Assembly (NCBI GenBank): GCA_035518915.1
Contig: DATIXE010000051.1
Span: 5,314-29,313, forward strand
Length of the DNA stretch: 24,000 nucleotides
Source: Candidatus Eiseniibacteriota bacterium
GTDB lineage: Bacteria; Acidobacteriota; Terriglobia; Acidiferrales; UBA7541
Direction of reading: 5' to 3'
How positions within the stretch are numbered: position 1 is the first letter of the stretch; each line of letters begins with the position of its first letter. This document shows positions 780 through 18,707 of this stretch, piece after piece. A model generated the notes under the pieces. The model worked only from the letters and a program-made list of their open reading frames with translations. It was not told the DNA's origin and ran no database searches. Made by a program: the position numbers and the translations under genes.

Positions 780-1034
780 ATGGAAATGGTAACGGTGTAC
801 AGCGCCGGGTGGTGCCCGGACTGCTGGCGCACAAAGAAATTTCTCAACGAGCGCGGCGTCGAATTCCACGAAATCAATATTGAAGAAGACGTCGAGGCCG
901 CTGCGCTAGTGATGCGGGTGAACCATGGACGACGGCGAATTCCCACGCTGAAGATTGGCGAACGCTACATTGCCTGCAGCCCATTCAACGCGCAAAAGCT
1001 TGCCGATGAACTGCGAATACCGCTCAATTTCTAA
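780..1034 (+). CDS. Glutaredoxin/NrdH/mycoredoxin-like thioredoxin-fold protein (CPDC active site)
   Basis: I chose ATG 780 (or ATG 786) inside the longer 624 ORF because the upstream part overlaps atpC and is Arg/Pro-rich. The 84-aa product VTVYSAGWCPDCWRTKKFLNERGVEFHEINIEED..RRRIPTLKIG has the CxxC motif and the cis-Pro (IPT) layout of glutaredoxin-like proteins. Confidence 0.8.
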   Translation: MEMVTVYSAGWCPDCWRTKKFLNERGVEFHEINIEEDVEAAALVMRVNHGRRRIPTLKIGERYIACSPFNAQKLADELRIPLNF

Positions 1035-6774: not shown

Positions 6775-7227
6775 ATGAATGACACGCTGGAGGCTGCCGA
6801 ACCGGTGCGGGAGAACGAGGCGACCCAAACGAATTCACAATTCCGATGGATAGGGTGGTCGAGCCTGTTTATCGCGATGGTGCAGAGCGTATGCACGATG
6901 TTTGTCGCACTGAGCGGGATGAGATTGTTGCTCGGCGCGGCGGCGTTTGCATCGGCGCTCGGCGCGATGCAGATCCTCGACAAGATCCATACCGATGCGA
7001 TTCGCTTGCCCATGGTATTGTTCGCGCTTGCCGGGGCGATGTTCAATCTGGCGGCATTGTGGCAGGTGCGGCGATTGCGGAGACGCGCGGCGTCAGCGTG
7101 GAGACAAAAGTCCGTGTCCAGCAGCAAGTTTGCTTCGGAAAAAGTGCAACTCGCCTTGTCCCTGCTGACTCTGGGGCTGCTGCTGGTGGAATCGTATTTT
7201 CACTTCCAGAAGACGCATCATTTCTGA
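6775..7227 (+). CDS. Hypothetical integral membrane protein (about 4 TM segments)
   Basis: AAGGAG at 6762-6767 lies 7 nt before ATG 6775. Hydrophobic segments are WSSLFIAMVQSVCTMFVAL, LLLGAAAFASALGAM, LPMVLFALAGAMFNLAALW and LALSLLTLGLLLV. I recognise no family. Confidence 0.7.
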   Translation: MNDTLEAAEPVRENEATQTNSQFRWIGWSSLFIAMVQSVCTMFVALSGMRLLLGAAAFASALGAMQILDKIHTDAIRLPMVLFALAGAMFNLAALWQVRRLRRRAASAWRQKSVSSSKFASEKVQLALSLLTLGLLLVESYFHFQKTHHF

Positions 7228-7252
7228 AGACGACGGTACAGATCGTAGAGTG

Positions 7253-7516
7253 TTAGACCGGTTTTTCGGGGGAAGTGGTTCCTTCCCGCAGGATTCTTTC
7301 CAGTCGCTTGTGCAGGCGCTCGCTGTAGCCCACCGGCAACTCGTAGGTGCGATCATCCGCAGTCAAAACCAGAATATTTCGCGTGGAATCCAAAATGGCG
7401 GAGCACACTTCGCAGTTTTCCAGGTGGTTCTCGATATCCGTGAGCAGGGCGGCATCCAGCTGATGGTCAAGGTACTCGGAGATGTGCTCCCAGACGTGTT
7501 TGCACTCCAGCTTCAT
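7253..7516 (-). CDS. Soluble zinc-binding (ZAS, zf-HC2) anti-sigma factor
   Basis: 87-aa ORF whose ATG overlaps the stop codon of the upstream sigma gene (ATGA). It has an H-x3-C-x2-C motif (HLENCEVC) and a Cys 26 residues upstream of that His. There is no hydrophobic segment. Confidence 0.85.
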   Translation of the reverse strand: MKLECKHVWEHISEYLDHQLDAALLTDIENHLENCEVCSAILDSTRNILVLTADDRTYELPVGYSERLHKRLERILREGTTSPEKPV

Positions 7517-8142
7517 CCGAAGAACCTCCCGAAAAAGCCCTTTCTGGCCGGCACGGCGGTTTTCAAATAAGGAGCCAGAAGCTTCTGCAGCATCATGCGA
7601 GCCCGGTGCAGCCGTACTTTGACCAGATTAATACTTATGCCCAGTGCGGCGGCAGTTTCCACCTGGTTGAGTTCCTCAAGGTCACGCAGGACCAAAACCT
7701 CTCGATAAAGGGGCGGCAGATGGTCCACCGCTTCCCGTAATTTCAATCGCAACTCCTTCTTCTCGAGGGCTGCGGAAGGAATTTCGCGCCAGTCGGTGAG
7801 AACCGCAGGCGTGAAATCCCCTTCCTTCTCCGCGATCATTTCTTCGAGCGAATCCTGAGGGACGAGTTTCGCCCTGCGGAGCCGCTGCCGGGCTTCGTTC
7901 ATGGCGATGGTCACGAGCCAGGTGCTGAATTTCGCATCGCCCCGGAAACCCTTCAAGTGGCGAAAGGCGCTAATCATCACGTCCTGGGCCGCATCCTCCG
8001 CTTCGGCCTCATTCCTCAGCATGGTGAAAACGGTCACGTAGACCAGCTTTTCATAAGGCCGTACGAGTTCATGGAAAAGGTTGGTTTCGCCCGCGAGGAT
8101 GCGGGCGATGAGTTCCTTCTCCTGCTCGGTAGCTGCCGGCAT
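7513..8142 (-). CDS. ECF-family RNA polymerase sigma-70 factor
   Basis: 209-aa ORF. Region 2 is LFHELVRPYEKLVYVTVFTMLRNEAEAEDAAQDVMISAFRHLKGFRGDAKFSTWLVTIAMNEA. Region 4 is LPPLYREVLVLRDLEELNQVETAAALGISINLVKVRLHRARMML. It is translationally coupled to the anti-sigma gene. Confidence 0.93.
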   Translation of the reverse strand: MPAATEQEKELIARILAGETNLFHELVRPYEKLVYVTVFTMLRNEAEAEDAAQDVMISAFRHLKGFRGDAKFSTWLVTIAMNEARQRLRRAKLVPQDSLEEMIAEKEGDFTPAVLTDWREIPSAALEKKELRLKLREAVDHLPPLYREVLVLRDLEELNQVETAAALGISINLVKVRLHRARMMLQKLLAPYLKTAVPARKGFFGRFFG

Positions 8143-8172
8143 GAGGCCCGAACGTCTCCCTTCGGCTCCTTT

Positions 8173-8202
8173 GTACGAGTCGGGTGACCGAGAAAGGTTA
8201 CA
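8173..8202 (-). promoter_or_regulatory. Candidate ECF-type autoregulatory promoter of the sigma/anti-sigma operon (Psig)
   Basis: The minus strand reads TGTAACCTTTCTCGGTCACCCGACTCGTAC and ends 30 nt upstream of the sigma ATG (8142). It has the same 30-nt register and the same ACTCGTAC box as the plus-strand copy at 8337-8366. Confidence 0.55.
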
Positions 8203-8336
8203 GGACCAAAGCTCTGGGGTAAATGGCGGGGTTGACGAGTGTTTGGGGCCGAGTTCGCGGAGGGGAGCTTGAGACGCGCTCGCAAATGCGGCAGGGGGAC
8301 AGGCGGACGACTTGGGCGTCTAATGAACGAAAACCT

Positions 8337-8366
8337 TGAAACCTTTTCGCGGGTGGCCACTCGTAC
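8337..8366 (+). promoter_or_regulatory. Candidate ECF-type promoter P1 for the YHS-DoxX-DinB-like-ATP-grasp-NRDE unit
   Basis: TGAAACCTTTTCGCGGGTGGCCACTCGTAC ends 42 nt upstream of ATG 8409. It has an AAC-type -35 and a CGTA-type -10 like known ECF promoters. It mirrors the copy facing the sigma gene in the same intergenic region. Confidence 0.6.
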
Positions 8367-8408
8367 TGCCTGCCACTAGACTTTTTTGGGATCGGAAAGG
8401 GGAAGCGA

Positions 8409-8873
8409 ATGAGGGCCATAGTGAAAAGAGCGATCGTGCTGACGATGCTGCTTTGGGGATTTCCGGCGCTTCCGCAGGGCGGAAAGACGTTGCAGAACCT
8501 GGATAGAAATGGAGTGGCCATTCAGGGGTACGATCCGGTGGCGTTTTTCACCCAGAACAAGCCCGTGAAGGGGGACAAGCGCTTTGAAAGTACTTACAAG
8601 GGCGCAACGTATTACTTTGTGTCGGGGGAAGACAAAGCGGCCTTCGACGCATCTCCGGGGAAGTACGAGCCTGAGTTCGGAGGATTCTGCGCGTATGGGG
8701 TTTCCAGGGGGAAGCTCGTGCCGGTGGATGTACAAGCATTCCAGATTGTCAACGGCAAGCTGTTACTCCAGTACGACCTCGACATCAAAGAGAAATTCAA
8801 CAAGGACCAGGCCGGCAATCTGGACAAGGCGAACCAGAATTGGCCGCAGCTGGTGGAAAAGAAAGGCCGCTAA
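8409..8873 (+). CDS. YHS-domain-containing exported protein (Cys form of a family I recall as containing selenoprotein members)
   Basis: 154-aa ORF with GGGGAAG before the ATG and the signal peptide MRAIVKRAIVLTMLLWGFPALPQG. It contains AIQGYDPVAFF..KG..YKGATYYFVSGEDKAAFDASPGKYEPEFGGFCAYGV, the typical YHS-domain pattern with a single conserved Cys. Confidence 0.82.
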   Translation: MRAIVKRAIVLTMLLWGFPALPQGGKTLQNLDRNGVAIQGYDPVAFFTQNKPVKGDKRFESTYKGATYYFVSGEDKAAFDASPGKYEPEFGGFCAYGVSRGKLVPVDVQAFQIVNGKLLLQYDLDIKEKFNKDQAGNLDKANQNWPQLVEKKGR

Positions 8874-8930
8874 TTCGAGGGGATCGGCGAAGGCTCGAAC
8901 CGGAGCGCCATCCAATCGGGAGAGGACACG

Positions 8931-9320
8931 ATGGGGACTAGCATTTTGAGCTGGATTTTGCGCCTGATTGCCGCAGTCATTTTGTTACAGACTTTGTTTT
9001 TCAAGTTCACCGGGGCTCCAGAGTCCATCTACATCTTCACAAAGGTGGGGGCCGAGCCTTGGGGGCGCATTGGTTCAGGTATCGTTGAACTTGTCGCGGC
9101 CATACTGCTTCTTTGGCCGCGATTCACTTGGCTCGGTTCGGCTCTGGCGCTGGGGATGATGGCCGGTGCAATCGTGAGTCACCTGACGGTGCTCGGGATT
9201 GAAGTCCAAGGGGATAAGGGGCTCCTGTTCGGGTTGGCACTGACCGTTTTTATTGCCTCGGCCATCAACTTGTTTCTCCATCGAGCGGAAATTCCAGTGA
9301 TCGGCGGGAGGCTGGCATGA
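8931..9320 (+). CDS. DoxX-family membrane protein
   Basis: 129-aa ORF with GGGAGAGGA before the ATG. It has four hydrophobic helices, and ILRLIAAVILLQTLFFKFTG..G..ELVAAILLLWPR..GAIVSHL resembles DoxX/DoxX-like proteins. Confidence 0.78.
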   Translation: MGTSILSWILRLIAAVILLQTLFFKFTGAPESIYIFTKVGAEPWGRIGSGIVELVAAILLLWPRFTWLGSALALGMMAGAIVSHLTVLGIEVQGDKGLLFGLALTVFIASAINLFLHRAEIPVIGGRLA

Positions 9321-9901
9321 ACCGGGCGATGGCAGGCGTGGCGAGAACTCCGGAAGCGGAGCCGGCGGCGGTTGGTTCGGACTTGCCGGAGTTGGTCGCT
9401 GCCGCAGGGGAAGTGCTCCAGCAAGGGCTGAATTTGCTTTCCCGGCTGGACGACGAGAAATATTCACGGATCGCGAGAGACCCCTTTAACGCCTCGGTCG
9501 GCGGGCATTACCGCCATGTGCTGGAACACTTCCAGTGCCTGATCGAAGGGATGTCCCAAAGAGTCGTCAACTACGACGCGCGGCGGAGAAATCCGCGCAT
9601 CGAGAACGAAGTGGGCTATGCGTCCGCTTCCACGGGCGAAGTTTTGAGGATTCTTCGAGGCTGGCGCGGAGAGACATTGCAGCAATCGTGCAAAACAATG
9701 AGTAGCGTCGGGTATCATTCCGGGCTTCCGGCGACAATCGATTCCAACGCCGGGCGAGAACTGGCCTACTGCGCAGCCCATGCGGTACACCATTTCGCCA
9801 TCATCCGCTTGATCTGCAACGAAGTGGGGATTGAAGTCTCCAAGGAATTCGGATACGCGCCTTCGACACTAAAGCACCAATCTTTGCTCGCCGCCGATTA
9901 G
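9317..9901 (+). CDS. Hypothetical cytoplasmic protein, DinB/YfiT-like helical-bundle candidate (His-rich motifs)
   Basis: 194-aa ORF whose ATG overlaps the DoxX stop (ATGA). GGHYRHVLEHFQCLIEG and YCAAHAVHHFAIIRLI look like the spaced His ligands of DinB-superfamily proteins. The assignment is by eye and tentative. Confidence 0.55.
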   Translation: MNRAMAGVARTPEAEPAAVGSDLPELVAAAGEVLQQGLNLLSRLDDEKYSRIARDPFNASVGGHYRHVLEHFQCLIEGMSQRVVNYDARRRNPRIENEVGYASASTGEVLRILRGWRGETLQQSCKTMSSVGYHSGLPATIDSNAGRELAYCAAHAVHHFAIIRLICNEVGIEVSKEFGYAPSTLKHQSLLAAD

Positions 9902-9912
9902 TGGGGAATCGA

Positions 9913-11526
9913 ATGAGCCTCCTGCCGTTACAAGTTAGTGGGAGTGTCGCAACGGCGATTGCCATCATTGTGGGAGCATTCGTCTCCGAGGATGCCGCTA
10001 CGATTACCGCGGCAACTCTAGCTGCGGGCAGCGTACTTGATCCCCGGCTTTCTTTTTTCAGCGCAGCTACTGGCTTGTGGGCGGGTGACCTTGGCGTATA
10101 CGCGGTGGCGCGCATTTGGGGCGAGAAGGCGCGTCGCACCTCGTGGCTGGGGCGCGCGGCCTCCTCGGCCGAGCAGGCGACTGCTGGTACGGCTGGCGGC
10201 TGGGCTTTGGCGCTGAGCCGATTTTTCCCTGGGGCACGGTTGCCCGCGTATGTTGCGGCAGGTCTAAATCGAATGCCGTTTCCTCGTTACGCGGGGATTA
10301 CGGCGCTGACGGCGTCGATCTGGACGTCCATCGTTTTCACCGCGATCTGGTTGTTCCCTGGTCAGGCGCAGACGGCTCGAGAACGGCTTGCGCAGGTAGG
10401 GATGGCGGGTTTGACGATTTTCGGGATTGTGTTTCTTTGGAAACGATTCGGCCATCACTTGCAGTTCTCATTGCGGAATCTCTGGCAGCGCGTGACACGT
10501 TGGGAGTTCTGGCCACCGTGGCTTTTCTACACTCCCGTGGCGTTGATGTGCGCCTGGCTGAGCGCGCGATTCCGCGGCATTTCCCTTCCGACCGTCGCCA
10601 ATCTGAATCAGAAAAACGGCGGGATCATTGGAGAATCCAAATACGAGATCTTGCGCGAACTGATGGAAAGCTCCCCGGAGGCCACGGCCGCCGCTTATTT
10701 GATTCCTGCCGGAGGTGACGAAGTCCGGTTTGGGAGGATTCAGGATCTCCTGGCCCGGCACGAGATTTCGTTCCCCTTCGTCTTGAAACCAGACACGGCG
10801 CAGCGAGGCGCGGGCTTCCGAAAAATCCGTTCGCTGGGCGAAGTGCAGGAATATCTGCAGCGGATTTCGCAGTCGCTGGTTCTGCAAAGATATGTGCAAG
10901 GCCCGCAGGAGGCGGGAATTTTCTATTACCGGTTTCCGGGACAACTTGAGGGGCAGATTTTCGGCATTACCCGAAAACGGTTTCCCGTGCTGGCCGGGGA
11001 TGGAATTCATTCCCTCAAGCAGCTGGTCGAATTGGATGATCGAGCGCGCTTCCTCCGTGGCGTTTACCTGAAACGCCTGGGCGCAGAGGCGAAACGAGTT
11101 CCCGCCGCGGGCGAACTTGTGAGACTGGTGGAAGCCGGAAACCACTGTCAGGGCTGCATCTTTGAGGACGGGTGGGACCTTGATTCCGAGGAGTTGCGCC
11201 GGGCGATGGACCGGATCAGCCTGCCACTGAACGGGTTCTATGTCGGGCGGTTCGACGTGCGTTATACCGATGACGACTCGCTGCGTGCCGGGAAAGGCTT
11301 CCAGGTGATTGAGTTGAATGGGGCTGCCTCGGAAGCCACGAATCTCTACGATGCAAAGAACTCCCTGTGGGCCGCCTATCGCACTCTATACCGCCAGTGG
11401 CGGCTGATTTACGCGATCGGTGCGGAAAATCGGAAGCGCGGTGCGGTGCCGCGCGCGGCGCTCAGTGTCTGGCGCGACTGGCGGGAGTTTTCATCGCATG
11501 CTTGCGAATTCCCTATCGCAGATTGA
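9913..11526 (+). CDS. Fusion protein: N-terminal DedA/VTT (SNARE-associated) membrane domain plus C-terminal ATP-grasp ligase domain
   Basis: I prefer ATG 9913 (GGGGA 5 nt upstream) over GTG 9901. The N-terminal part has FVSEDAATITAATLAAG, GLWAGDLGVYAVARIWG and LSRFFPGARLPAYVAAGLNRMPF (DedA-like), followed by two more TM segments. The C-terminal part has FPFVLKPDTAQRGAGF, LVLQRYV, GDGIHSL and FQVIELNGAASEATNLYD (ATP-grasp carboxylate-amine ligase pattern). Confidence 0.8.
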   Translation: MSLLPLQVSGSVATAIAIIVGAFVSEDAATITAATLAAGSVLDPRLSFFSAATGLWAGDLGVYAVARIWGEKARRTSWLGRAASSAEQATAGTAGGWALALSRFFPGARLPAYVAAGLNRMPFPRYAGITALTASIWTSIVFTAIWLFPGQAQTARERLAQVGMAGLTIFGIVFLWKRFGHHLQFSLRNLWQRVTRWEFWPPWLFYTPVALMCAWLSARFRGISLPTVANLNQKNGGIIGESKYEILRELMESSPEATAAAYLIPAGGDEVRFGRIQDLLARHEISFPFVLKPDTAQRGAGFRKIRSLGEVQEYLQRISQSLVLQRYVQGPQEAGIFYYRFPGQLEGQIFGITRKRFPVLAGDGIHSLKQLVELDDRARFLRGVYLKRLGAEAKRVPAAGELVRLVEAGNHCQGCIFEDGWDLDSEELRRAMDRISLPLNGFYVGRFDVRYTDDDSLRAGKGFQVIELNGAASEATNLYDAKNSLWAAYRTLYRQWRLIYAIGAENRKRGAVPRAALSVWRDWREFSSHACEFPIAD

Positions 11527-11529
11527 GTT

Positions 11530-12279
11530 ATGTGTACTCTGAGCTTTTTGCCGGTACATGGTGGCTACGTGGCGGCGATGAACCGCGATGAAGAGCGCGC
11601 GCGGCCTTTAGCGCTGCTCCCAGCTGTTCATTCAATCGGCGAGTTGAACGCTCTCTACCCCAGGGAAGCTGGCGGGGGGACGTGGATCGGAGCGAACGGC
11701 GCGGGCACTCTATTCGGGCTGCTGAACTGGTATGCCAGAGAAACGGAGAATCTCCCGAAAAAAGCGAGGTCCCGCGGCGAGGTCATTCCGCATCTGCTGG
11801 GAGATCTGGATGCGGCAACTTCGGAACGTGCGTTGTGGCAGCTGGATCTCGAGGGAATCCATCCGTTCCGCTTGATTGGTGTTTATCCCGGGGAGCGGCA
11901 AATCCGGGAATGGCGCTGGGACGCACGGCAGCTGGTCCATAAATCTCATGATTGGGGACGGCAGCACTGGTTCTCCTCCAGCCGTTCCGATACCATCGCG
12001 GAACGGGAGCGCGGAGCGGCGTGCGAACGCACGTGGAGGGGGGAGCCAAACGATCCGGCAATCTGGCTTCGCACGCTGCACTCCGGCCATATCCCCGAGC
12101 CAGGACCGTTTTCAATTTGCGTCCATCGTGCAGACGCGGCTACGGTCAGCTACACGGAAGTGATTTGGGATGGCACCCAACTCCAGATGCGCTACCTGGC
12201 AGGAAATCCTTGCCAAGCCGTGGAAATGCCCGGAGCATGGACGCTCCCTGTTTCCGCCAGCGCGCCGGGACGCGGATAG
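11530..12279 (+). CDS. NRDE-family (TANGO2-like) protein
   Basis: 249-aa ORF starting 3 nt after the previous stop codon. It has the N-terminal MC, the family-defining AMNRDE motif, GGTWIGANGAGTLFGLLN and SRGEVI. Confidence 0.88.
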   Translation: MCTLSFLPVHGGYVAAMNRDEERARPLALLPAVHSIGELNALYPREAGGGTWIGANGAGTLFGLLNWYARETENLPKKARSRGEVIPHLLGDLDAATSERALWQLDLEGIHPFRLIGVYPGERQIREWRWDARQLVHKSHDWGRQHWFSSSRSDTIAERERGAACERTWRGEPNDPAIWLRTLHSGHIPEPGPFSICVHRADAATVSYTEVIWDGTQLQMRYLAGNPCQAVEMPGAWTLPVSASAPGRG

Positions 12280-12293
12280 ACCACCCGGCCAGC

Positions 12294-12323
12294 TGAAACC
12301 TTTTGTCCCTTCGGGACTCTCAT
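12294..12323 (+). promoter_or_regulatory. Candidate ECF-type promoter P2 for the SDR-to-250-aa-protein unit
   Basis: TGAAACCTTTTGTCCCTTCGGGACTCTCAT lies in the 78-nt gap after the NRDE gene. Its first 11 nt are identical to P1, the ACTC box is in the same register, and it ends 34 nt before ATG 12358. Confidence 0.5.
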
Positions 12324-12357
12324 CCGCCAAGGAGAGTTCCGGGAAGGATTGGCGTCC

Positions 12358-13047
12358 ATGAAAGACAAGGTTGTTTTCATCACCGGCGCGAATGGAGGAC
12401 TCGGAGGTTCCGTAACGCGGGCATTTTTGCAAGCAGGCGCGAGAGTCATTGGGAGCTCGCTGCGCATCACTGCTGCGGACTTTCCGGAACCCAATTTTGA
12501 AGCCATGAGAATGGACTTCAATCAGCTTGAAGAGATTCGCCGCGGGGTGAGCAAACTTATTGAGCGATATGGCCGATTAGACGTGCTAGTGCACGTGCTG
12601 GGCGGATTCGCCGGCGGCCCCACGGTGGCGGAAACTCCCGATTCCATGTGGGAACAGATGCAGGGTCTTAATCTGACGGCCGCGTTTAAGGTATTCCGCG
12701 AATGCATTCCGCATCTTCGGAAGTCCGGGGCTGGCAGGCTTATCGCGATCGGCAGCTTGACGGCGGCGCAGCCGCACGCCCATCTGGGAGCGTACGTGGT
12801 CTCGAAGGCCGCGCTTGCGATGCTGGTGCGAACGGTTGCGCTGGAAAACGCCGACGCTAGCTTGACTGCGAATGTAATTCTGCCTGGAACGATGGATACT
12901 CCCGCAAACAGAAAATCCATGCCCGACGCAGATTTTTCAAAATGGGTGAAGACGCGGGATGTTGCGGAAATCGTATTGTCGCTGGCAGGCGAAGGCGGAA
13001 AGCATCTCACGGGCCTAGAAATCCCCATCGAGGGCGGACATGGCTGA
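12358..13047 (+). CDS. Short-chain dehydrogenase/reductase (SDR) family oxidoreductase
   Basis: It has VVFITGANGGLGGSV (TGxxxGxG), an NVL-type region, S..YVVSKAAL (YxxxK) and PGTMDTP. I prefer ATG 12358 (GGAAGGA upstream) to the TTG at 12349 given in the ORF track. Confidence 0.9.
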   Translation: MKDKVVFITGANGGLGGSVTRAFLQAGARVIGSSLRITAADFPEPNFEAMRMDFNQLEEIRRGVSKLIERYGRLDVLVHVLGGFAGGPTVAETPDSMWEQMQGLNLTAAFKVFRECIPHLRKSGAGRLIAIGSLTAAQPHAHLGAYVVSKAALAMLVRTVALENADASLTANVILPGTMDTPANRKSMPDADFSKWVKTRDVAEIVLSLAGEGGKHLTGLEIPIEGGHG

Positions 13048-13282
13048 ACGTGTCGCCGGATGGGTGATCTGGGGCATGTACACCTATGTGCTGGCCGGAA
13101 GTATTTTTGCGGGATGTTTTGTTGCTCGCGGCGTGCAGAAGGTGGATTCGGAGGCGCGAAGTGCAGGGATCGGCTTTCGATTGCTGATTTTTCCCGGAGC
13201 GGTGGCGTTCTGGGCTCTATTACTGAAGCGGTGGGTCGCAGCGGCGGGTGAACCGCCGGGAGAGAGGAACCCGCACCAATGA
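13040..13282 (+). CDS. Small membrane protein (80 aa, 2 predicted TM segments), unknown function
   Basis: Its ATG overlaps the SDR stop codon by 8 nt (ATGGCTGA). It has two hydrophobic helices (WVIWGMYTYVLAGSIFAGCFV and FRLLIFPGAVAFWALLL). Third codon positions are G/C-rich in this frame. Confidence 0.65.
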   Translation: MAERVAGWVIWGMYTYVLAGSIFAGCFVARGVQKVDSEARSAGIGFRLLIFPGAVAFWALLLKRWVAAAGEPPGERNPHQ

Positions 13283-13479
13283 TTCAGCCGCTCCGAACCG
13301 TGCATCGGCAAGTGTTCCTGTTGCTCACGCTGGCGCTTCCCCTCTTGTTTGTCGCGGGGATTCGGGCGCGGCACTGGGTGCTGACGCCGAAACCCGAATC
13401 CGGACAGCGCGCTCTTGCGGCGCCGAAGACGCGGAAGGAATTGGCCGCCACGGCTGCTCGCGGAGAGGGGCGGCCGTGA
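13279..13479 (+). CDS. Small membrane protein (66 aa, 1 predicted TM segment), unknown function
   Basis: It has an ATGA overlap with the previous gene and a GTGA overlap with the next. The TM helix is VFLLLTLALPLLFVAGI. Third-position G/C bias favours this frame over the competing 13248 frame. Confidence 0.55.
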   Translation: MIQPLRTVHRQVFLLLTLALPLLFVAGIRARHWVLTPKPESGQRALAAPKTRKELAATAARGEGRP

Positions 13480-14516
13480 GTCACGGATATGTGGCAGTCG
13501 GATGGAACGCGCAGAAGCGCGGGTACGATGTGACACTGGCGTGTGGAGTAATTTTGTACGTTGGAACTTTTGTCGGGCTAAGCGCAGTGCTGTATCCAAC
13601 GGCGACTGCGGAAACGCTTCTGATCCGCGCCTTGGGGTCCTGCGCATTTCTGATGCTCAATGTCGTGTTGTGCATTGGTCCGCTCTGCCGCCTGGATTCG
13701 AGATTTCTGCCGCTTCTCTATAACCGGCGGCATCTAGGCGTGACGACATTTCTTCTGGGCCTGGGACATGGCGCTTTCGGACTGATTCAATTTCACAGGC
13801 TGGGAAACATGGATCCCCTGCTCAGCCTGTTCACCGCAAATCGAAATTATTTCAGCCTGGCCGATTTCCCGTTTCAGCCGCTTGGTTTTCTGGCCTTAAT
13901 CATCCTGTTCCTGATGGCGGCCACGAGTCATGACTTCTGGTTGCGCAACCTGACGCCTCCCGTCTGGAAGAGCTTGCACATGCTGGTCTATTTGGCTTAC
14001 GCGCTGCTGGTGGCTCACGTCACTCTGGGACTGTTGCAATCGGAACGGAGCCGATGGCTAGTGGGAGCAATGGCGATCAGTTTGTCCGCCGTAATTTCGC
14101 TGCACCTGGCCGCGGCGCTGCGTGAGCGGAAAACGGACGATGCGAGACTCTCGCCCAGCGGCACGGGCTACTTGGCTGCATGCCCAGTCGAGGAAATCCC
14201 CGAAAAATACGCAAAAGTCGTTTCCGTTCATGGGGAGCGGGTGGCGATCTTCAAATTCGATGGGAAGATCTGCGCGCTTTCCAACGTCTGCCGGCACCAG
14301 AATGGCCCGCTGGGCGAGGGAAAGATCGTGGACGGTTGCGTGACGTGTCCATGGCACGGGTATCAATATTTGCCGGAATCCGGCGCTTCGCCGCCACCAT
14401 TCACCGAGAAGGTCTCCACGTTTCGGACGAAGCTCGCGGATGGCATGGTCTGGCTGGACCCGAATCCTCTGCCGCCGGGAAGTCGTGTGGAACCATCCAG
14501 GATTGAAAGCGTCTGA
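13476..14516 (+). CDS. Fusion protein: ferric-reductase-like (MsrQ/YedZ-type, dihaem b) 6-TM domain plus C-terminal Rieske [2Fe-2S] domain
   Basis: I chose GTG 13476 (GTGA coupling) because the ORF-track start at 13248 adds an Arg/Ala-rich, non-membrane extension that overlaps the two mini genes. There are six TM segments with conserved His residues (RRHLGV, LGLGHGAF, TSHDFW, SLHMLVYLAYALLVAHV). The C-terminus has CRHQNGPL...CPWHGYQY, which is the Rieske C-x-H / C-x2-H pair. Confidence 0.85.
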   Translation: MSHGYVAVGWNAQKRGYDVTLACGVILYVGTFVGLSAVLYPTATAETLLIRALGSCAFLMLNVVLCIGPLCRLDSRFLPLLYNRRHLGVTTFLLGLGHGAFGLIQFHRLGNMDPLLSLFTANRNYFSLADFPFQPLGFLALIILFLMAATSHDFWLRNLTPPVWKSLHMLVYLAYALLVAHVTLGLLQSERSRWLVGAMAISLSAVISLHLAAALRERKTDDARLSPSGTGYLAACPVEEIPEKYAKVVSVHGERVAIFKFDGKICALSNVCRHQNGPLGEGKIVDGCVTCPWHGYQYLPESGASPPPFTEKVSTFRTKLADGMVWLDPNPLPPGSRVEPSRIESV

Positions 14517-14525
14517 GGGATACGC

Positions 14526-15278
14526 ATGAAGGAGTTTTACATCGGGTATCTGCCCAGCGCTCCGCCCGCGATTCGCAGGCGCGTGGGGATTCTTGTGGGA
14601 CTAATTGTTCTGTTTGGCGTTGCCAGCGGGGCCTTGTTTGCGGTTGCCCAAAGCGGATTCGCGAAATCCTATTTTGAATTCGGAAAGCCAAGGGAATTTA
14701 CCGGAGTGCTGCGCCGGCACCCGTTTCCTACGTTGGTTGCGGACGACACGATTCGCGAAGGAAGTTCCTCGCCTTCCGTTTATCTTCTGGTGGCTCCCGG
14801 GAAATTTGGGGCCGATTCTCTCGTGGGCGGCAAGGATGATTGGCATGTCCGGCTGCGGGGAACGCGGATCCATCGCACGGAAGGGGAAATGATCGAGATC
14901 GAACCCGGATCCATTGTGGAAACGCCAGACTCGCGAACTTCCGCATCCCTGGAACGCGATTTGGGATATGCGCGACTATCGGGCGAGATCGTGGACACGA
15001 AATGCTACCTGGGCGTGATGAATCCTGGTGAAGGGAAAGTGCACCGTGAATGCGCAGCCCTGTGCTTAAGGGGCGGCATCCCTCCGGCTCTGGTTTCTTC
15101 AGATTTAGATGGCAAGCCGCGACTGTTTATCCTGATTGGTCCAGAGGGCGAACCGATGGCTAAAGAGGATTACTTACAACGCGTTGGACAGCCAGTTTCG
15201 ATGGAAGGCCGCATCGTGGAGAAGGATCAACTCTATTATCTGCAAGCCGATCCAGCCAGCATCGTGGCGCTTCCATAG
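14526..15278 (+). CDS. N-terminally membrane-anchored protein of unknown function with C-x12-H-x2-C-x3-C motif
   Basis: 250-aa ORF with GAGGGA 5 nt before the ATG. It has a single N-terminal TM segment (RRRVGILVGLIVLFGVASGALFAV). The C-terminal region GEIVDTKCYLGVMNPGEGKVHRECAALCLRGGIPP..GQPVSMEGRIVEKDQLYYL resembles the 109-aa secreted protein at 2312-2641. Confidence 0.75.
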   Translation: MKEFYIGYLPSAPPAIRRRVGILVGLIVLFGVASGALFAVAQSGFAKSYFEFGKPREFTGVLRRHPFPTLVADDTIREGSSSPSVYLLVAPGKFGADSLVGGKDDWHVRLRGTRIHRTEGEMIEIEPGSIVETPDSRTSASLERDLGYARLSGEIVDTKCYLGVMNPGEGKVHRECAALCLRGGIPPALVSSDLDGKPRLFILIGPEGEPMAKEDYLQRVGQPVSMEGRIVEKDQLYYLQADPASIVALP

Positions 15279-15293
15279 CTCCCTGCAGTTCCC

Positions 15294-15323
15294 GGAAACC
15301 TTTTCGATTCCCGCCACTCAAAT
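15294..15323 (+). promoter_or_regulatory. Candidate ECF-type promoter P3 for the DUF1223 gene
   Basis: GGAAACCTTTTCGATTCCCGCCACTCAAAT shares GAAACCTTTTCG and CCACTC with P1 in identical register. It ends 48 nt upstream of the TTG start at 15372. Confidence 0.45.
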
Positions 15324-15371
15324 GGAAGCTGGCTTGGTTCCTCGGCCGGCAGCATCAGGGAGGTAACTATC

Positions 15372-16196
15372 TTGATTCCGAATCTAGTACGCTCACCGTT
15401 GGTTTACGCTTCGGTCGTTGGAACCTTAGGATTGCTCGCACTTTTCCAGTTCGGCCGGAACACCAATGCGAAGGGGACCTTGCCAAGCGGCACCGCGACG
15501 GGGCCGGTACTGGTGGAGCTATTCACTTCCGAAGGATGCTCGAGTTGCCCACCAGCGGATGCTTTGTTGAAGCACTTGAGCGAACAACAGCCCGCAGATG
15601 GGATCCGGATCGTGGCGCTTGAAGAACATGTGGACTACTGGAATCACCTTGGCTGGGCGGATCCTTTTTCGTCGAGTGAATTTTCCGAACGGCAGAACGC
15701 GTATGCCGAGACCTTTGGTCGCGACGGGGTCTATACGCCGCAGATGGTAGTGGACGGGCAATTCGAGTTTGTGGGGAGCCGCAGCGGCGCCGCGCGCGAC
15801 GCCATTCGGAAGGCTGCCGCAGAACCGAAGCTGAATGTCGCGCTCACTCTGAGTGGAAGCGCCACGACGGAAGCACCGGTCGTAGACATACAGATCAGCA
15901 ATGCGAGCGGAGTTGTTCCTCATGGCGAATCGATGCTCTGGCTGGCGATTACGGAAAAGAATCTGCAATCCGACGTGAAGGCCGGAGAAAACTCAGGAGA
16001 ACTCTTGAAGCACGCCGACGTGGTCCGAAGTCTGCGAAAAGTGACCGCGCTCCCCGTGCCTATCAATTACAAGGCGCAGGTGAAGCTATCGCTCAACTCC
16101 AAATGGAATCGAGATAGTCTCACGGCGGTTGCATTCGTGGCAGAGCAAGAGTCGCGCCGGATTATCGGCGCGGGCACGGTGGCCCTGCATCGTTGA
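15372..16196 (+). CDS. DUF1223-family thioredoxin-like protein (CxxC), exported or membrane-anchored
   Basis: 274-aa ORF with a TTG start and GGGAGG 8 nt upstream. It has a hydrophobic N-terminus. VLVELFTSEGCSSCPPAD, EEHVDYWNHLGWADPFSS, FSERQNAYA and VYTPQMVVDG are the characteristic DUF1223 motifs. Confidence 0.85.
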   Translation: MIPNLVRSPLVYASVVGTLGLLALFQFGRNTNAKGTLPSGTATGPVLVELFTSEGCSSCPPADALLKHLSEQQPADGIRIVALEEHVDYWNHLGWADPFSSSEFSERQNAYAETFGRDGVYTPQMVVDGQFEFVGSRSGAARDAIRKAAAEPKLNVALTLSGSATTEAPVVDIQISNASGVVPHGESMLWLAITEKNLQSDVKAGENSGELLKHADVVRSLRKVTALPVPINYKAQVKLSLNSKWNRDSLTAVAFVAEQESRRIIGAGTVALHR

Positions 16197-16249
16197 CGCC
16201 AGGCAGTCGTTCTTGCTGATGGTTCGAATCAGGGAGACGCGCGCAGTCC

Positions 16250-17161
16250 CTAGTGGCGGATCGTCAAGACGGGGCACCGCGCTTGGCAGGCGAGCCTGTA
16301 AGCGACGGCCGAAGGTAATTCTCCGGTCGCGTGCTTTCCAGAGCGCATTCCGATGACGATCAAGTCGGAATTGGCTTCCCGCGCGTATTCGAGAATCTGT
16401 TCGCTGGGTTCGCCAACGCGCACCTGGAAGGATGCGGCGGTCTTTTCTGCCCAAGGTGAAGGGATGCCTTTTTTCATTCGCTGAACAAGGAAATCGCGCA
16501 CGATCTCGCGGCCGGCAGTCTGGGGATCCTCTCGATCCTCCACGACGTGAAGGACGGTTAACTCCGCGCCATGTTCGCTTTCCAGACCATACGCGAGAGC
16601 GGCAGCGCGTTCCGCGTGCGGCTTGAAATTAGTGGCATACAGGATTTTGCGGAGTTCGGTGGAGCTGGCGGGAGAAGTCTCCGCACGCATCCCCACTGTG
16701 AGAATCGGCCGTTCCGCAACTCGAAAAATCTCCTCGGCCACTGGGCCCAGTAACTGCTTCTTCGCTTGAGTGTGTCCGTGAGTTCCCAGCACGATCAGAT
16801 CGATTGAATTAGCGACCGTGAATTCCTGCAACGCCGGCCAAACTCTCTCGCCGCATAGAATCTCCGACCGTAGTTGCTCGGCGCAGCCAGTCTCTTCCAC
16901 CAGGCGTTGCATTTCTGCGCCGGCGACGGCTTTGGCCTGACGCGCGGCTTCTTCCGGGCCTACAGACGATACGTAGCGAAGAAGGCCTGACGGTATGGCA
17001 TGCACCAGAAAAATCCTGCTATCGAAATGCCGGGCGAGCGGGAGCGCGCACTGCAACGCAGCCCGGGCGCCCGCGGAAAAATCCGTGGCAACCAAGATTC
17101 TCTGGAAATTGACGCCCGAGGTCGCCAAGGCGTTTTTTGCGGTGAGTCCGCCAGTTGACAT
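16250..17161 (-). CDS. Universal stress protein, tandem UspA domains
   Basis: 303-aa ORF with two Usp repeats. The first is ILVATDFS..LVHAI..DLIVLGTHGH..LLGPVAEEIFRVAERPILTV. The second is ILYATNF..LTVLHVV..DLIVIGMRSG..LPSAVAYRLACQARCPVLTI. Confidence 0.9.
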   Translation of the reverse strand: MSTGGLTAKNALATSGVNFQRILVATDFSAGARAALQCALPLARHFDSRIFLVHAIPSGLLRYVSSVGPEEAARQAKAVAGAEMQRLVEETGCAEQLRSEILCGERVWPALQEFTVANSIDLIVLGTHGHTQAKKQLLGPVAEEIFRVAERPILTVGMRAETSPASSTELRKILYATNFKPHAERAAALAYGLESEHGAELTVLHVVEDREDPQTAGREIVRDFLVQRMKKGIPSPWAEKTAASFQVRVGEPSEQILEYAREANSDLIVIGMRSGKHATGELPSAVAYRLACQARCPVLTIRH

Positions 17162-17208
17162 GCTCTTTTGCCAGGGCCTCCCGAAGTTCGCCGAACCTAT
17201 CGGGCAGA

Positions 17209-17222
17209 GTGATGCACATCAC
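17209..17222. promoter_or_regulatory. Inverted repeat GTGATG-CA-CATCAC (TGAT-N4-ATCA core), candidate CRP/FNR-family operator
   Basis: Perfect 6-2-6 inverted repeat in the divergent region between usp and the globin-coupled kinase gene. Its centre is about 54 nt upstream of the usp ATG. Confidence 0.3.
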
Positions 17223-17384
17223 ATGCCACGGTTCAAGCTTGTAACTGATTGATACTAAGGCAGGTAGGTGGCTTGTTGTAATGCCTCTGCGGGCGCTTGG
17301 GCCAGATGACCCATTCGGCGTGGAATTTCACGCTTTGCGCGAGTGCCGCCGGTTTCTGGCCTTGGGCGAGAACACTTGCCCCCG

Positions 17385-17413
17385 TTGGGGAGCATTGGGG
17401 CCAGTGGTATTAT
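17385..17413 (+). promoter_or_regulatory. Candidate sigma-70-type extended -10 promoter that would give a leaderless kinase mRNA
   Basis: TTGGGG (17385-17390), then 17 nt ending in TGg, then TATTAT (17408-17413). The -10 hexamer ends 7 nt before ATG 17421, and there is no Shine-Dalgarno sequence in front of that ATG. Confidence 0.3.
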
Positions 17414-17420
17414 CCTCAGG

Positions 17421-18707
17421 ATGTCCGCGCCCGAGCCGACTCGTTTGCCGTTGGAAAGCTTCGTCGACGAGATGAAGCGGTATCTTCATCTGTTGCCCGA
17501 GGATGCCGCGCTGCTGAAGGAACTTCGTCCGCTCATGGAAAAATACCTTCCGGAAATGGCGGAGAGGTTTTATGCGCAGATTCCCCATCATCCGGGAGCG
17601 AGCCGGGTATTCACTGGCGGCGAAGCGCAGGTGCAGCGCCTTAAATCGACCTTACAGGTTTGGGGCCGCGGTCTGTTCAACGGCGTATACGACGAAGACT
17701 ATGCCGAGGACCGGTATCGCATCGGCTTCCGCCACGTGCGGATCACCCTCGATCAGAAATACGTTATCAGCGCCATGGGCGTGGTGCGGGCGTTCCTGAT
17801 GGAAAAGCTTTTCGACGAGTTTCCGGCGCGCGAGCAGCGGCTGGCCTACTCGCAGGCGCTCGGGAAAATCCTGGATCTCGACCTCAACCTGATGTGCGAT
17901 TCGTATTTCCGCGCTACGATGGCGCACCTGCACACGCTCAATCAGGAACTGGAACAGGCGAGCGCGCAGCTTGCCGAAGCCAACGCAATCAAGGATGAGT
18001 TCCTCGCGCAAGTGTCCCACGACCTGCGCACGCCGCTAAACTCCATCCTGAGTTTTACCAAGATGGTTCTGGACGGGTTTTGCCGGGACCCGGAAGAGGA
18101 AAAGGAGGTACTGCGCGACGTTTTTAGTAGCGGACAGTTACTACTGCGGCTGGTAAATGATCTGTTGGACATTTCGGCGATCGAAGCGGGCAAGCTGGCT
18201 CTGGATCTCGAGGAAATCGAGCCACGTACGGTGTTGGATTCGACATTGCCGCTGGTGGCCATTCAAGCCGCCTCCAAGAATATCCGACTGATTGACGAGA
18301 CGCTGGATCAGACGCTACCGACAGTCAAGAGCGACGAGATCCGTTTTCGCCAGGTGCTTCTGAATTTGCTTTCGAACGCAGTGAAGTTCACGGCGCAAGG
18401 ATATGTGCTGGTCCGGGCGTTACATAATAAACACGAACGGCATTTGCGAATCGAGATTGAAGACACGGGGATCGGTGTTCCGATAGAGAAACGCAACGTT
18501 GTATTCGAAAAATTTGTGCGGCACGACCCGAAAGCGCTGCGTGGAGTCACCGGTTCGGGCCTGGGGTTGGCTATCGCCAAGAGACTTGTTGAAATGATGC
18601 AAGGAAAGATTGGATTGGAGGCCGGGCCAGGAGGTAAAGGCTCCGTCGTGTGGTTTACGCTGCCGCTGGCGACACCCATGTCGACGCCGGAGGCACCCGA
18701 CCGGTGA
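17421..18707 (+). CDS. Globin-coupled sensor histidine kinase (protoglobin/sensor-globin domain + HisKA + HATPase_c)
   Basis: The N-terminal domain aligns by eye with HemAT-type sensor globins: MAERFYAQI (distal Tyr), VQRLKSTLQVWGRGLFNGVYDEDYAEDRYRIGFRHVRITLDQKYVISAM (proximal His in RHVRI). It is followed by a coiled coil, the H-box FLAQVSHDLRTPLNSI, the N-box LLNLLSNAVKF, and the G-boxes DTGIGV and GSGLGLAI. I prefer ATG 17421 to GTG 17343. Confidence 0.88.
   Translation: MSAPEPTRLPLESFVDEMKRYLHLLPEDAALLKELRPLMEKYLPEMAERFYAQIPHHPGASRVFTGGEAQVQRLKSTLQVWGRGLFNGVYDEDYAEDRYRIGFRHVRITLDQKYVISAMGVVRAFLMEKLFDEFPAREQRLAYSQALGKILDLDLNLMCDSYFRATMAHLHTLNQELEQASAQLAEANAIKDEFLAQVSHDLRTPLNSILSFTKMVLDGFCRDPEEEKEVLRDVFSSGQLLLRLVNDLLDISAIEAGKLALDLEEIEPRTVLDSTLPLVAIQAASKNIRLIDETLDQTLPTVKSDEIRFRQVLLNLLSNAVKFTAQGYVLVRALHNKHERHLRIEIEDTGIGVPIEKRNVVFEKFVRHDPKALRGVTGSGLGLAIAKRLVEMMQGKIGLEAGPGGKGSVVWFTLPLATPMSTPEAPDR

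Follow-up and report, generated by a model that had tools for sequence, protein, structure and literature searches.

What reads four copies of a 30-nt motif that lie just ahead of genes in one short region of soil bacterial DNA? The region belongs to a 24 kb stretch (hereafter the window) of contig DATIXE010000051.1, assembly GCA_035518915.1, which originates from soil metagenomes and whose relatives are metagenome-assembled genomes (MAGs) of Acidobacteriota of the Acidoferrales/Sulfotelmatobacter type. A reading made from the letters alone (the sequence-only reading) had proposed that the motif is an extracytoplasmic function (ECF) promoter linking a sigma/anti-sigma gene pair to an adjacent island of 11 genes, and footprinting in 160 related loci supports this promoter and regulon reading. 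We assign a probability of about 0.85 to the explanation that the four sites are promoters to which the adjacent ECF sigma factor (7513-8142) guides RNA polymerase. The regulon predicted in this way most likely comprises the sigma operon itself and three neighboring operons of envelope redox and metal-handling genes.

Four copies of the motif in the window

The four sites, with the genes that they are predicted to serve, are:

8202 to 8173, minus strand: Psig, TGTAACCTTTCTCGGTCACCCGACTCGTAC, with -35 TGTAACCTTT and -10 ACTCGTA; predicted autoregulatory ECF promoter of the sigma/anti-sigma operon; ends 30 nt before the sigma ATG
8337-8366, plus strand: P1, TGAAACCTTTTCGCGGGTGGCCACTCGTAC; predicted ECF promoter of YHS-DoxX-DinB_2-VTT/DedA-TANGO2; ends 42 nt before the YHS ATG
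12294-12323, plus strand: P2, TGAAACCTTTTGTCCCTTCGGGACTCTCAT; predicted ECF promoter of SDR-orf80-orf66-Ferric_reduct/Rieske-orf250; ends 34 nt before the SDR ATG
15294-15323, plus strand: P3, GGAAACCTTTTCGATTCCCGCCACTCAAAT; predicted ECF promoter of the DUF1223 gene; ends 48 nt before a TTG start

The letters at these coordinates are exactly those given in the sequence-only reading, and its range of 30-48 nt to the start codon was reproduced by calculation (30, 42, 34 and 48 nt). Its description of a tightly packed gene string interrupted by gaps agrees with the gene calls on the source contig, and a recount of the island again gave 11 genes. Each copy precedes the first gene of a transcription unit. 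Just 5' of P1, at 8330-8347, there is also a partial duplication of the -35 sequence, AAAACCTTGAAACCTTTT.

When the core pattern AACCTTT-N12-ACTC was scanned on both strands of the window with at most one mismatch, exactly 4 matches were found. In 100 dinucleotide-preserving shuffles the mean was 0.21, and no shuffle reached 4. This count speaks against the possibility that the copies are a chance recurrence or the remnants of a dispersed repeat without a regulatory role, as does the fact that the copies agree in the two core blocks alone and have different spacers. Because these four sites themselves supplied the pattern, a circularity that favors the chance explanation, an independent weight-matrix test carries more weight. 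We built the matrix from the sigma-upstream sites of orthologous loci only, using the core columns and allowing A at position 3 (maximum 32.7 bits). Psig and P1 scored 31.0 bits each, P2 29.0 bits and P3 22.2 bits, and no further site in the window reached 10 bits, in keeping with the earlier remark that a scan by eye showed no further intergenic copy there. An additional 9.7 kb of the source contig, upstream, held no site of 16 bits or more and a single 10.0-bit site at its far end, which is background level. The hexamer GAAACC alone occurs 28 times in the window and is thus common; the signal is the two-part register and not the hexamer.

The P2 spacer contains a perfect 5-bp hairpin, GTCCC-TTC-GGGAC (12305-12317), directly after the TANGO2 stop, which resembles hairpins of some repeat elements. 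We dismissed a role as terminator or structural element and attribute it to chance: no T-run follows it, a terminator scan did not report it, and it is absent from orthologous P2 sites, which also counts against a repeat origin for the four copies. A search of the whole window for known RNA elements (Rfam, gathering thresholds) returned nothing.

Conservation of the motif in related loci

The footprinting set comprised 160 related loci (1.94 Mb, numbered with the prefix L where single loci are named), of which 80 were orthologous sigma/anti-sigma loci from a genome scan with the sigma alignment (62-80% identity) and 80 came from a metagenome scan with the YHS protein. Across the 80 sigma/anti-sigma loci the matrix found 102 matches of at least 20 bits, compared with 0.33 in shuffles. 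A motif lay at most 400 nt upstream of the sigma gene in 55 of the 80 genome loci, giving 54 unique sequences. Over all promoter classes the consensus is TG[T/A][A/T]AC[C/T]TTT-N12-ACTCnnA. Among the 54 sigma-upstream sequences no exception occurs at G2, T3, A5, C6, T8, T25 or C26, and A29 is found in 53; either A or T fills position 4, and the twelve spacer positions are essentially random. The -35 element can be written as G-W-W-A-C-Y-T-T and the -10 element as (A)CTCnnA, an RpoE-like TCnnA box. Their spacing is strict: GWWACYTT-N14-CTCnnA has 156 matches in the 1.94 Mb, whereas any other gap from N9 to N20 has 0-9. The fixed 14 nt place the C of AAC 18 nt from the TC of the -10. An AAC-containing -35, a TCnnA -10 and a spacer of rigid length are what is expected of an ECF-type promoter. 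Of the -10 described earlier, the TC is conserved; the CGT drawn from Psig and P1 is not.

A DNA-binding repressor or activator might equally have its operator conserved ahead of the genes that it co-regulates. However, the motif is asymmetric and in two parts, with neither dyad nor direct-repeat symmetry; it is always oriented with the downstream gene; its spacer is rigid in length but free in sequence; and it lies at promoter distance, with blocks that match the ECF -35 (AAC) and -10 (TCnnA) elements. Nor was a sigma-70-type promoter detected nearby for an operator to control: the interval 7000-17400 contained 0 such promoter-like sites, compared with 3.1 expected from shuffles. We consider an operator very improbable. 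The short asymmetric blocks, the free spacer of fixed length, the co-orientation, the promoter distance and the presence of a site before the sigma operon itself favor a promoter recognized by a sigma factor over both an operator and a repeat.

Position 3 (window positions 8200 in Psig, 8339 in P1, 12296 in P2 and 15296 in P3) differs by gene class across orthologues. It is T in 59/59 sigma sites, and A in 29/32 YHS, 13/14 SDR and 11/13 DUF1223 sites. This base may tune promoter strength between autoregulation and the targets.

The 11 genes on the plus strand form three predicted transcription units:

8409-12279, plus strand: unit 1, YHS-DoxX-DinB_2-VTT/DedA-TANGO2
8409-8873, plus strand: YHS (unit 1), NF041384 "(seleno)protein" family, with a signal peptide
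8931-9320, plus strand: DoxX (unit 1)
9317-9901, plus strand: DinB_2 (unit 1)
9913-11526, plus strand: VTT/DedA with a long C-terminal domain (unit 1)
11530-12279, plus strand: TANGO2 (unit 1)
12358-15278, plus strand: unit 2, SDR-orf80-orf66-Ferric_reduct/Rieske-orf250
12358-13047, plus strand: SDR (unit 2)
13040-13282, plus strand: orf80 (unit 2), small membrane open reading frame (ORF)
13279-13479, plus strand: orf66 (unit 2), small membrane ORF
13476-14516, plus strand: MsrQ-like Ferric_reduct membrane domain fused to a Rieske domain (unit 2)
14526-15278, plus strand: orf250 (unit 2), 250 aa, no family
15372-16196, plus strand: unit 3, DUF1223 (Pfam DUF1223, 2.7e-60), with CSSC (CxxC) after an N-terminal hydrophobic segment

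We counted, for each gene, how often a canonical motif of at least 16 bits occurs within 250 nt upstream of its orthologues. The motif is directly upstream of the sigma gene in 64/96 cases. In 18 further loci, of the type that we call gp2, it lies about 1.2 kb upstream of sigma in front of a DM13 gene; in one of these (L054, 8734-10860) the site, two DM13 genes, sigma and anti-sigma follow each other on one strand with short gaps. In these lineages (L054 and 17 others) the predicted promoter of sigma is thus about 1.2 kb away, and two exported DM13 'electron transfer' proteins are part of the regulator operon. Another locus, L099, has a sigma promoter with a +1 spacer. DUF1223 orthologues have the motif upstream in 13/15 loci, and YHS orthologues have the canonical motif about 30 nt upstream in 37/75. 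The motif also precedes DoxX genes in related loci and MsrA in one (L082). Before internal or flanking genes it was found in only 3/449 cases overall; the counts for individual control genes were:

DoxX: 1/63
DinB: 0/49
VTT: 0/20
TANGO2: 0/32
orf80: 1/28
orf66: 0/6
Ferric_reduct/Rieske: 0/27
orf250: 0/25
anti-sigma: 1/98
Usp: 0/8
globin kinase: 0/7
PepX: 0/10
FG-GAP: 0/14
amidohydrolase: 0/10

Because these counts are near zero, the motif marks only the first genes of transcription units. The table replaced a statistic of intergenic bias, the fraction of sites inside a long stop-to-stop ORF (46% of sites, 73% of random positions), which was discarded as too crude because in GC-rich DNA such ORFs extend upstream of the true starts.

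The region between sigma and YHS was aligned for 15 loci. Both -35/-10 pairs have been kept, as have the ribosome-binding sites and, just behind the -10 of P1, a short GCTG that could be the transcription start region. The remainder cannot be aligned. The footprinting proposed by the sequence-only reading was thus positive at all four positions, and their conservation amid unalignable flanking DNA effectively excludes chance or a repeat element as the source of the four copies.

A further 32 of the 75 YHS loci carry a variant of the motif, TGTCACTTC[TC]-N12-GAGTCTCA[CT]. They belong to distant lineages with the gene order SDR-...-orf250-YHS-... (L110, L113, L116-L123, L125, L126, L129-L131, L133, L134, L136, L139-L144, L146, L147, L149-L154, L156, L157, L161, L162 and L164). 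Their YHS proteins are 58-62% identical, and the variant lies about 30 nt upstream, in the same place as the canonical site; SDR in these lineages is preceded by CGTCACCTTT-N12-GAATCAGAT. The variant may reflect co-evolution with the sigma factor or the use of a paralogous one.

The gene order of unit 1 is conserved in many metagenome loci. We did not, however, retain the idea that the whole island is conserved beside the sigma gene: L011 alone of the 80 genome loci has YHS to TANGO2 there, although several close metagenome relatives do too. In relatives the three modules are shuffled or located elsewhere, each retaining its own copy of the motif. The shared motif supports the proposed link between the sigma factor and the adjacent 11 genes, but the island is three separable modules and not a single conserved unit. 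One locus, L104, has kept the P1 motif without any sigma gene within 6 kb; L102 and L103 resemble it by gene homology, yet have a Psig-type site at the sigma position.

Promoters of this kind could instead be read by one or more paralogous sigma factors encoded elsewhere, the adjacent sigma gene being only a target. Five distantly related loci (L124, L135, L138, L145 and L158) encode pairs 43-46% identical to the sigma and anti-sigma of the window that also adjoin YHS-DoxX-DinB clusters, which points to an ancient association of this ECF lineage with the cluster. These paralogues, whose motifs are related but different, count in favor of the alternative, as does the sigF promoter of Caulobacter, which is not solely dependent on sigmaF (PMC3511200). 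Against this, at least 82 of 96 orthologous sigma genes, whose proteins are 62-89% identical, have kept the motif ahead of their sigma/anti-sigma operon. Such retention is the usual signature of autoregulation (PMC7826278), and the target genes repeatedly adjoin this sigma gene. We therefore regard reading by one or more paralogues as unlikely, and favor promoters read with the adjacent sigma factor.

The sigma/anti-sigma pair, its predicted targets and a possible signal

The regulatory genes are:

7513-8142, minus strand: ECF (group 4) sigma-70 factor, 209 aa, RpoE/SigW-like (Pfam Sigma70_r2 3e-17, Sigma70_r4_2 1.5e-15)
7253-7516, minus strand: soluble zinc-binding anti-sigma (ZAS) factor, 87 aa, overlapping the sigma gene by 4 nt (Pfam zf-HC2 5e-09)

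The sequence-only reading had called this pair an ECF sigma factor and its anti-sigma, and the domain searches agree. The sigma protein has regions sigma2 and sigma4 only, as expected of an ECF (group 4) factor, and scores 108.1 bits with the ECF superfamily model TIGR02937 (cutoff 42.9). Its best specific NCBIfam model is NF008888, at 168 bits and under the cutoff of 204, with SigW next; an RpoE model matches as well. The best matches in the PDB are 8z6g_B, 6in7_B (1.3e-23; deposited as 'sigma-H factor', which we take to be AlgU) and SigW 5wuq (1.7e-23), followed more weakly by RpoE 1or7 (2.4e-16) and SigH 5zx2 (1.2e-11). The 18-nt geometry of the motif fits this RpoE/SigW-like sequence. Homologues number in the thousands, the closest at 77-89% identity; the main text of PMC7826278 gave no match for an ECF group number. 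After region 4 the protein has a short C-terminal tail (residues 190-209, window 7516-7575, minus strand) with the consensus PAKKGFFGRMFQ, in which P198, A199, K201, G202, F204, G205 and F208 are invariant in 17/17 aligned homologues.

The anti-sigma factor is found together with the sigma factor in 80/80 orthologous loci. It has the small size and the H-x3-C-x2-C motif with an upstream Cys that are typical of ZAS proteins, arranged as C-x25-H-x3-C-x2-C, and scores 36.5 bits with zf-HC2 (cutoff 22.2). C5, H31, C35 and C38 are invariant in the 80 orthologues, which are 78-92 aa long and show no hydrophobic stretch. The best NCBIfam match is TIGR03988 (antisig_RsrA) at 34.7 bits, below the cutoff of 62.5, and the best PDB match is RsrA 5frf (E 0.32). 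Judged by its sequence, the protein is RsrA-like in layout and lies outside the RsrA equivalog TIGR03988. A gene called convergent with the sigma operon (6775-7227, plus strand) has no Pfam match and is outside the system.

Under the proposed mechanism, region 4 of the sigma factor would contact the -35 block TG[T/A][A/T]AC[C/T]TTT and region 2 the -10 block (A)CTCnnA, with transcription starting about 6-8 nt after A29. At rest, the 87-aa soluble anti-sigma would hold the sigma factor by means of its zinc site (C5/H31/C35/C38). By analogy with the RsrA-like layout, a thiol-reactive signal such as an oxidant, an electrophile or a thiophilic metal (e.g. copper) might attack this site and release the sigma factor, whereupon all four promoters would fire. 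Psig would then drive the sigma/anti-sigma operon in positive autoregulation, and P1, P2 and P3 would drive the YHS-DoxX-DinB-VTT-TANGO2, SDR-orf80-orf66-Ferric_reduct/Rieske-orf250 and DUF1223 units. We infer the dependence on this sigma factor, the start position, the signal and the physiological role from sequence comparison.

What the signal might be is suggested in part by relatives. Next to the sigma gene and divergent from it, 21/80 orthologous loci have a gene cluster for an exported Cys-rich peptide with CKG repeats, an MNIO enzyme (PF05114), DUF2063 and DoxX (L020, L024, L025-L027, L029, L032-L034, L036, L038-L042, L044, L046, L048, L049, L051 and L053). An exported Cys-rich precursor together with MNIO, DUF2063 and DoxX marks these as bufferin-type clusters of ribosomally synthesized and post-translationally modified peptides (RiPPs). 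About 19 of the 21 lie behind TGTAACCTT[GC]-N12-[AG][CG]TCACAC. In L024 (cluster region 6941-9802) the matches, within 6941-9778, are MNIO 1.8e-107, DUF2063 5.4e-17 and DoxX 3.1e-16, and the precursor has a signal-peptide-like N-terminus and 8 Cys in CKG repeats; the precursors of these bufferin-like clusters gave no DUF2282 Pfam match. Based on these clusters and on the parallel with Caulobacter sigmaF described below, a metal or thiol-redox envelope stress response is our best functional guess, with a chance of being right that approaches, at most, one in two.

Several further observations touch the targets and their surroundings. The membrane domain of the VTT/DedA protein (9913-11526) spans residues 38-149 and is fused to a C-terminal region of about 330 aa with no Pfam family, which contains CQGC and weakly matches part of cyanophycin synthetase (residues 285-473, 2.3e-05). 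A full-text literature search for DUF1223 together with ECF found no paper. The downstream flank (window 16250-18707) encodes a tandem-Usp protein and a protoglobin-sensor histidine kinase, which look stress-related and lack the motif, as does a glutaredoxin gene right after the ATP synthase operon (window 780-1034, equivalent to L165 10504-10758). In L007-L014, several orthologous SDR genes have upstream motif copies whose -35 or spacer has gained or lost one nucleotide (e.g. TGAAACCTTAGGCCTTGCAGGACGCTCAT); from their sequences these look like decaying or re-spaced promoters.

Besides the circularity of the search pattern, several points weigh against reading the four sites as promoters of a stress regulon of the adjacent sigma factor. 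The entire case is one of comparative sequence analysis, and, since the loci were picked around the sigma and YHS genes, upstream-of-gene bias was judged from control genes inside these loci rather than from a whole-genome scan. SDR orthologues have the canonical motif upstream in only 16/35 loci, and several copies show shifted spacing or decay. Acidobacteria have many ECF paralogues, and one of similar specificity could read some of the sites. With regard to the signal, not every ZAS anti-sigma senses redox, and the likeness to RsrA falls short of the equivalog cutoff and is weak in the PDB search; the window itself has no bufferin cluster, so that the idea of metal stress is borrowed partly from relatives.

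The finding is nevertheless real and well supported, although of an ordinary kind: an autoregulated ECF sigma factor with neighboring targets is a textbook case. Its value lies in a testable regulon and a promoter model, TGWWACYTTT-N12-ACTCnnA, for an ECF sigma factor of soil Acidobacteria that is highly conserved in organisms without culture or genetics. The model ties DUF1223, the YHS seleno-family, bacterial TANGO2, DM13 and the Ferric_reduct-Rieske fusion to one predicted stress circuit, and related genomes also connect these families to bufferin-like copper-binding peptides, which points to conditions worth testing and to possible roles for the proteins. It should also be useful for annotating uncultured Acidobacteria.

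Comparison with known systems

The arrangement is one expected for the family, in that ECF sigma factors usually autoregulate and adjoin their regulators and targets, and motif-based prediction of their regulons is routine (PMC7826278). Among characterized systems, the closest functional parallel appears to be Caulobacter sigmaF. It responds to copper, chromium and cadmium, and its motif GTAACC-N16-CGAA controls DUF2282-DUF692-DUF2063-DoxX operons and YedY under metal stress; bufferin clusters are in its copper-stress regulon, and the sigF gene is beside buf1 (PMC3511200, PMC11626156). Buf1 clusters typically include sigma and NrsF genes (PMC12452194).

The two systems share an identical -35 core, GTAACC, in Psig and in the orthologous sigma promoters, a two-part motif with a fixed spacer, and a sigma gene that is adjacent and divergent to target operons. 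They also share DoxX proteins and MNIO(DUF692)-DUF2063-DoxX clusters, which are here a feature of the orthologous loci described above. Both include parts of a methionine sulfoxide reductase system, namely YedY, which we take to be MsrP, in Caulobacter and an MsrQ-like Ferric_reduct domain and MsrA here, and in both the conserved anti-sigma cysteines are the likely sensor. This likeness is drawn from the promoter and from gene arrangement and content. In contrast, the anti-sigma factor here, soluble and 87 aa long, belongs to zf-HC2 and gave no match to DUF1109, whereas NrsF (DUF1109) is a membrane protein with six helices. The -10 is CTCnnA and not CGAA, the precursor in relatives is a CKG-repeat protein without a DUF2282 Pfam match, and YHS, DinB, VTT, TANGO2, SDR and DUF1223 are outside the sigmaF regulon.

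It is conceivable, though we hold this bolder idea somewhat less likely than not to be correct, that the pair is the counterpart, widely conserved among Acidobacteria, of the metal-stress system built on sigmaF in Caulobacter, that it uses a different sensor, and that the base at position 3 (T for autoregulation, A for most targets) encodes a hierarchy of expression. Such a counterpart may have kept the GTAACC -35 specificity and outputs of the bufferin, DoxX and Msr type, with a cytoplasmic RsrA-like zinc-thiolate anti-sigma replacing the membrane protein NrsF. If true, the uncharacterized target genes of the window would add new parts to an envelope defence, against copper or of a thiol-redox kind, in soil bacteria that are abundant but uncultured. 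The candidates would be the YHS (seleno)protein, DinB_2, DedA with its ATP-grasp-like domain, bacterial TANGO2, the Ferric_reduct-Rieske fusion, orf250 and the CxxC protein DUF1223.

RpoE of E. coli, AlgU of Pseudomonas and SigW of B. subtilis are the closest solved or curated relatives of the sigma factor by sequence. As in the E. coli RpoE consensus, GGAACTT-N16-TCAAA, the motif combines AAC in the -35 with TCnnA in the -10, 18 nt apart. The sigma and anti-sigma genes also share one operon with its own predicted promoter, and in those systems the corresponding genes are co-transcribed and autoregulated. Unlike them, this sigma factor falls below the cutoff of all equivalog models, and its -35 is extended to TGWWACYTTT. 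Their anti-sigma factors RseA, MucA and RsiW span the membrane and are released by regulated proteolysis, whereas the one here is soluble.

A small soluble anti-sigma factor is instead a feature of Streptomyces sigmaR-RsrA and mycobacterial SigH-RshA, which are systems of thiol-oxidative stress with ZAS anti-sigma factors. The C-x25-H-x3-C-x2-C arrangement is that of the RsrA zinc motif (C11/H37/C41/C44), and the predicted targets here, like those of these systems, are redox proteins. However, the sigma factor is far closer to RpoE/SigW than to SigH, and the promoter is not the GGAAT-N18-GTT of sigmaR/SigH. Its predicted targets are mostly exported or membrane proteins, in contrast to the cytoplasmic thioredoxin or mycothiol systems controlled there.

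Because the pair departs from the sigmaF/NrsF type in its anti-sigma factor and scores below the SigW, RpoE and RsrA equivalog thresholds, we filed it under none of these. Taken together, the comparisons suggest a standard autoregulated ECF module that functionally resembles Caulobacter sigmaF and combines an RsrA-style sensor with an RpoE/SigW-like sigma factor.

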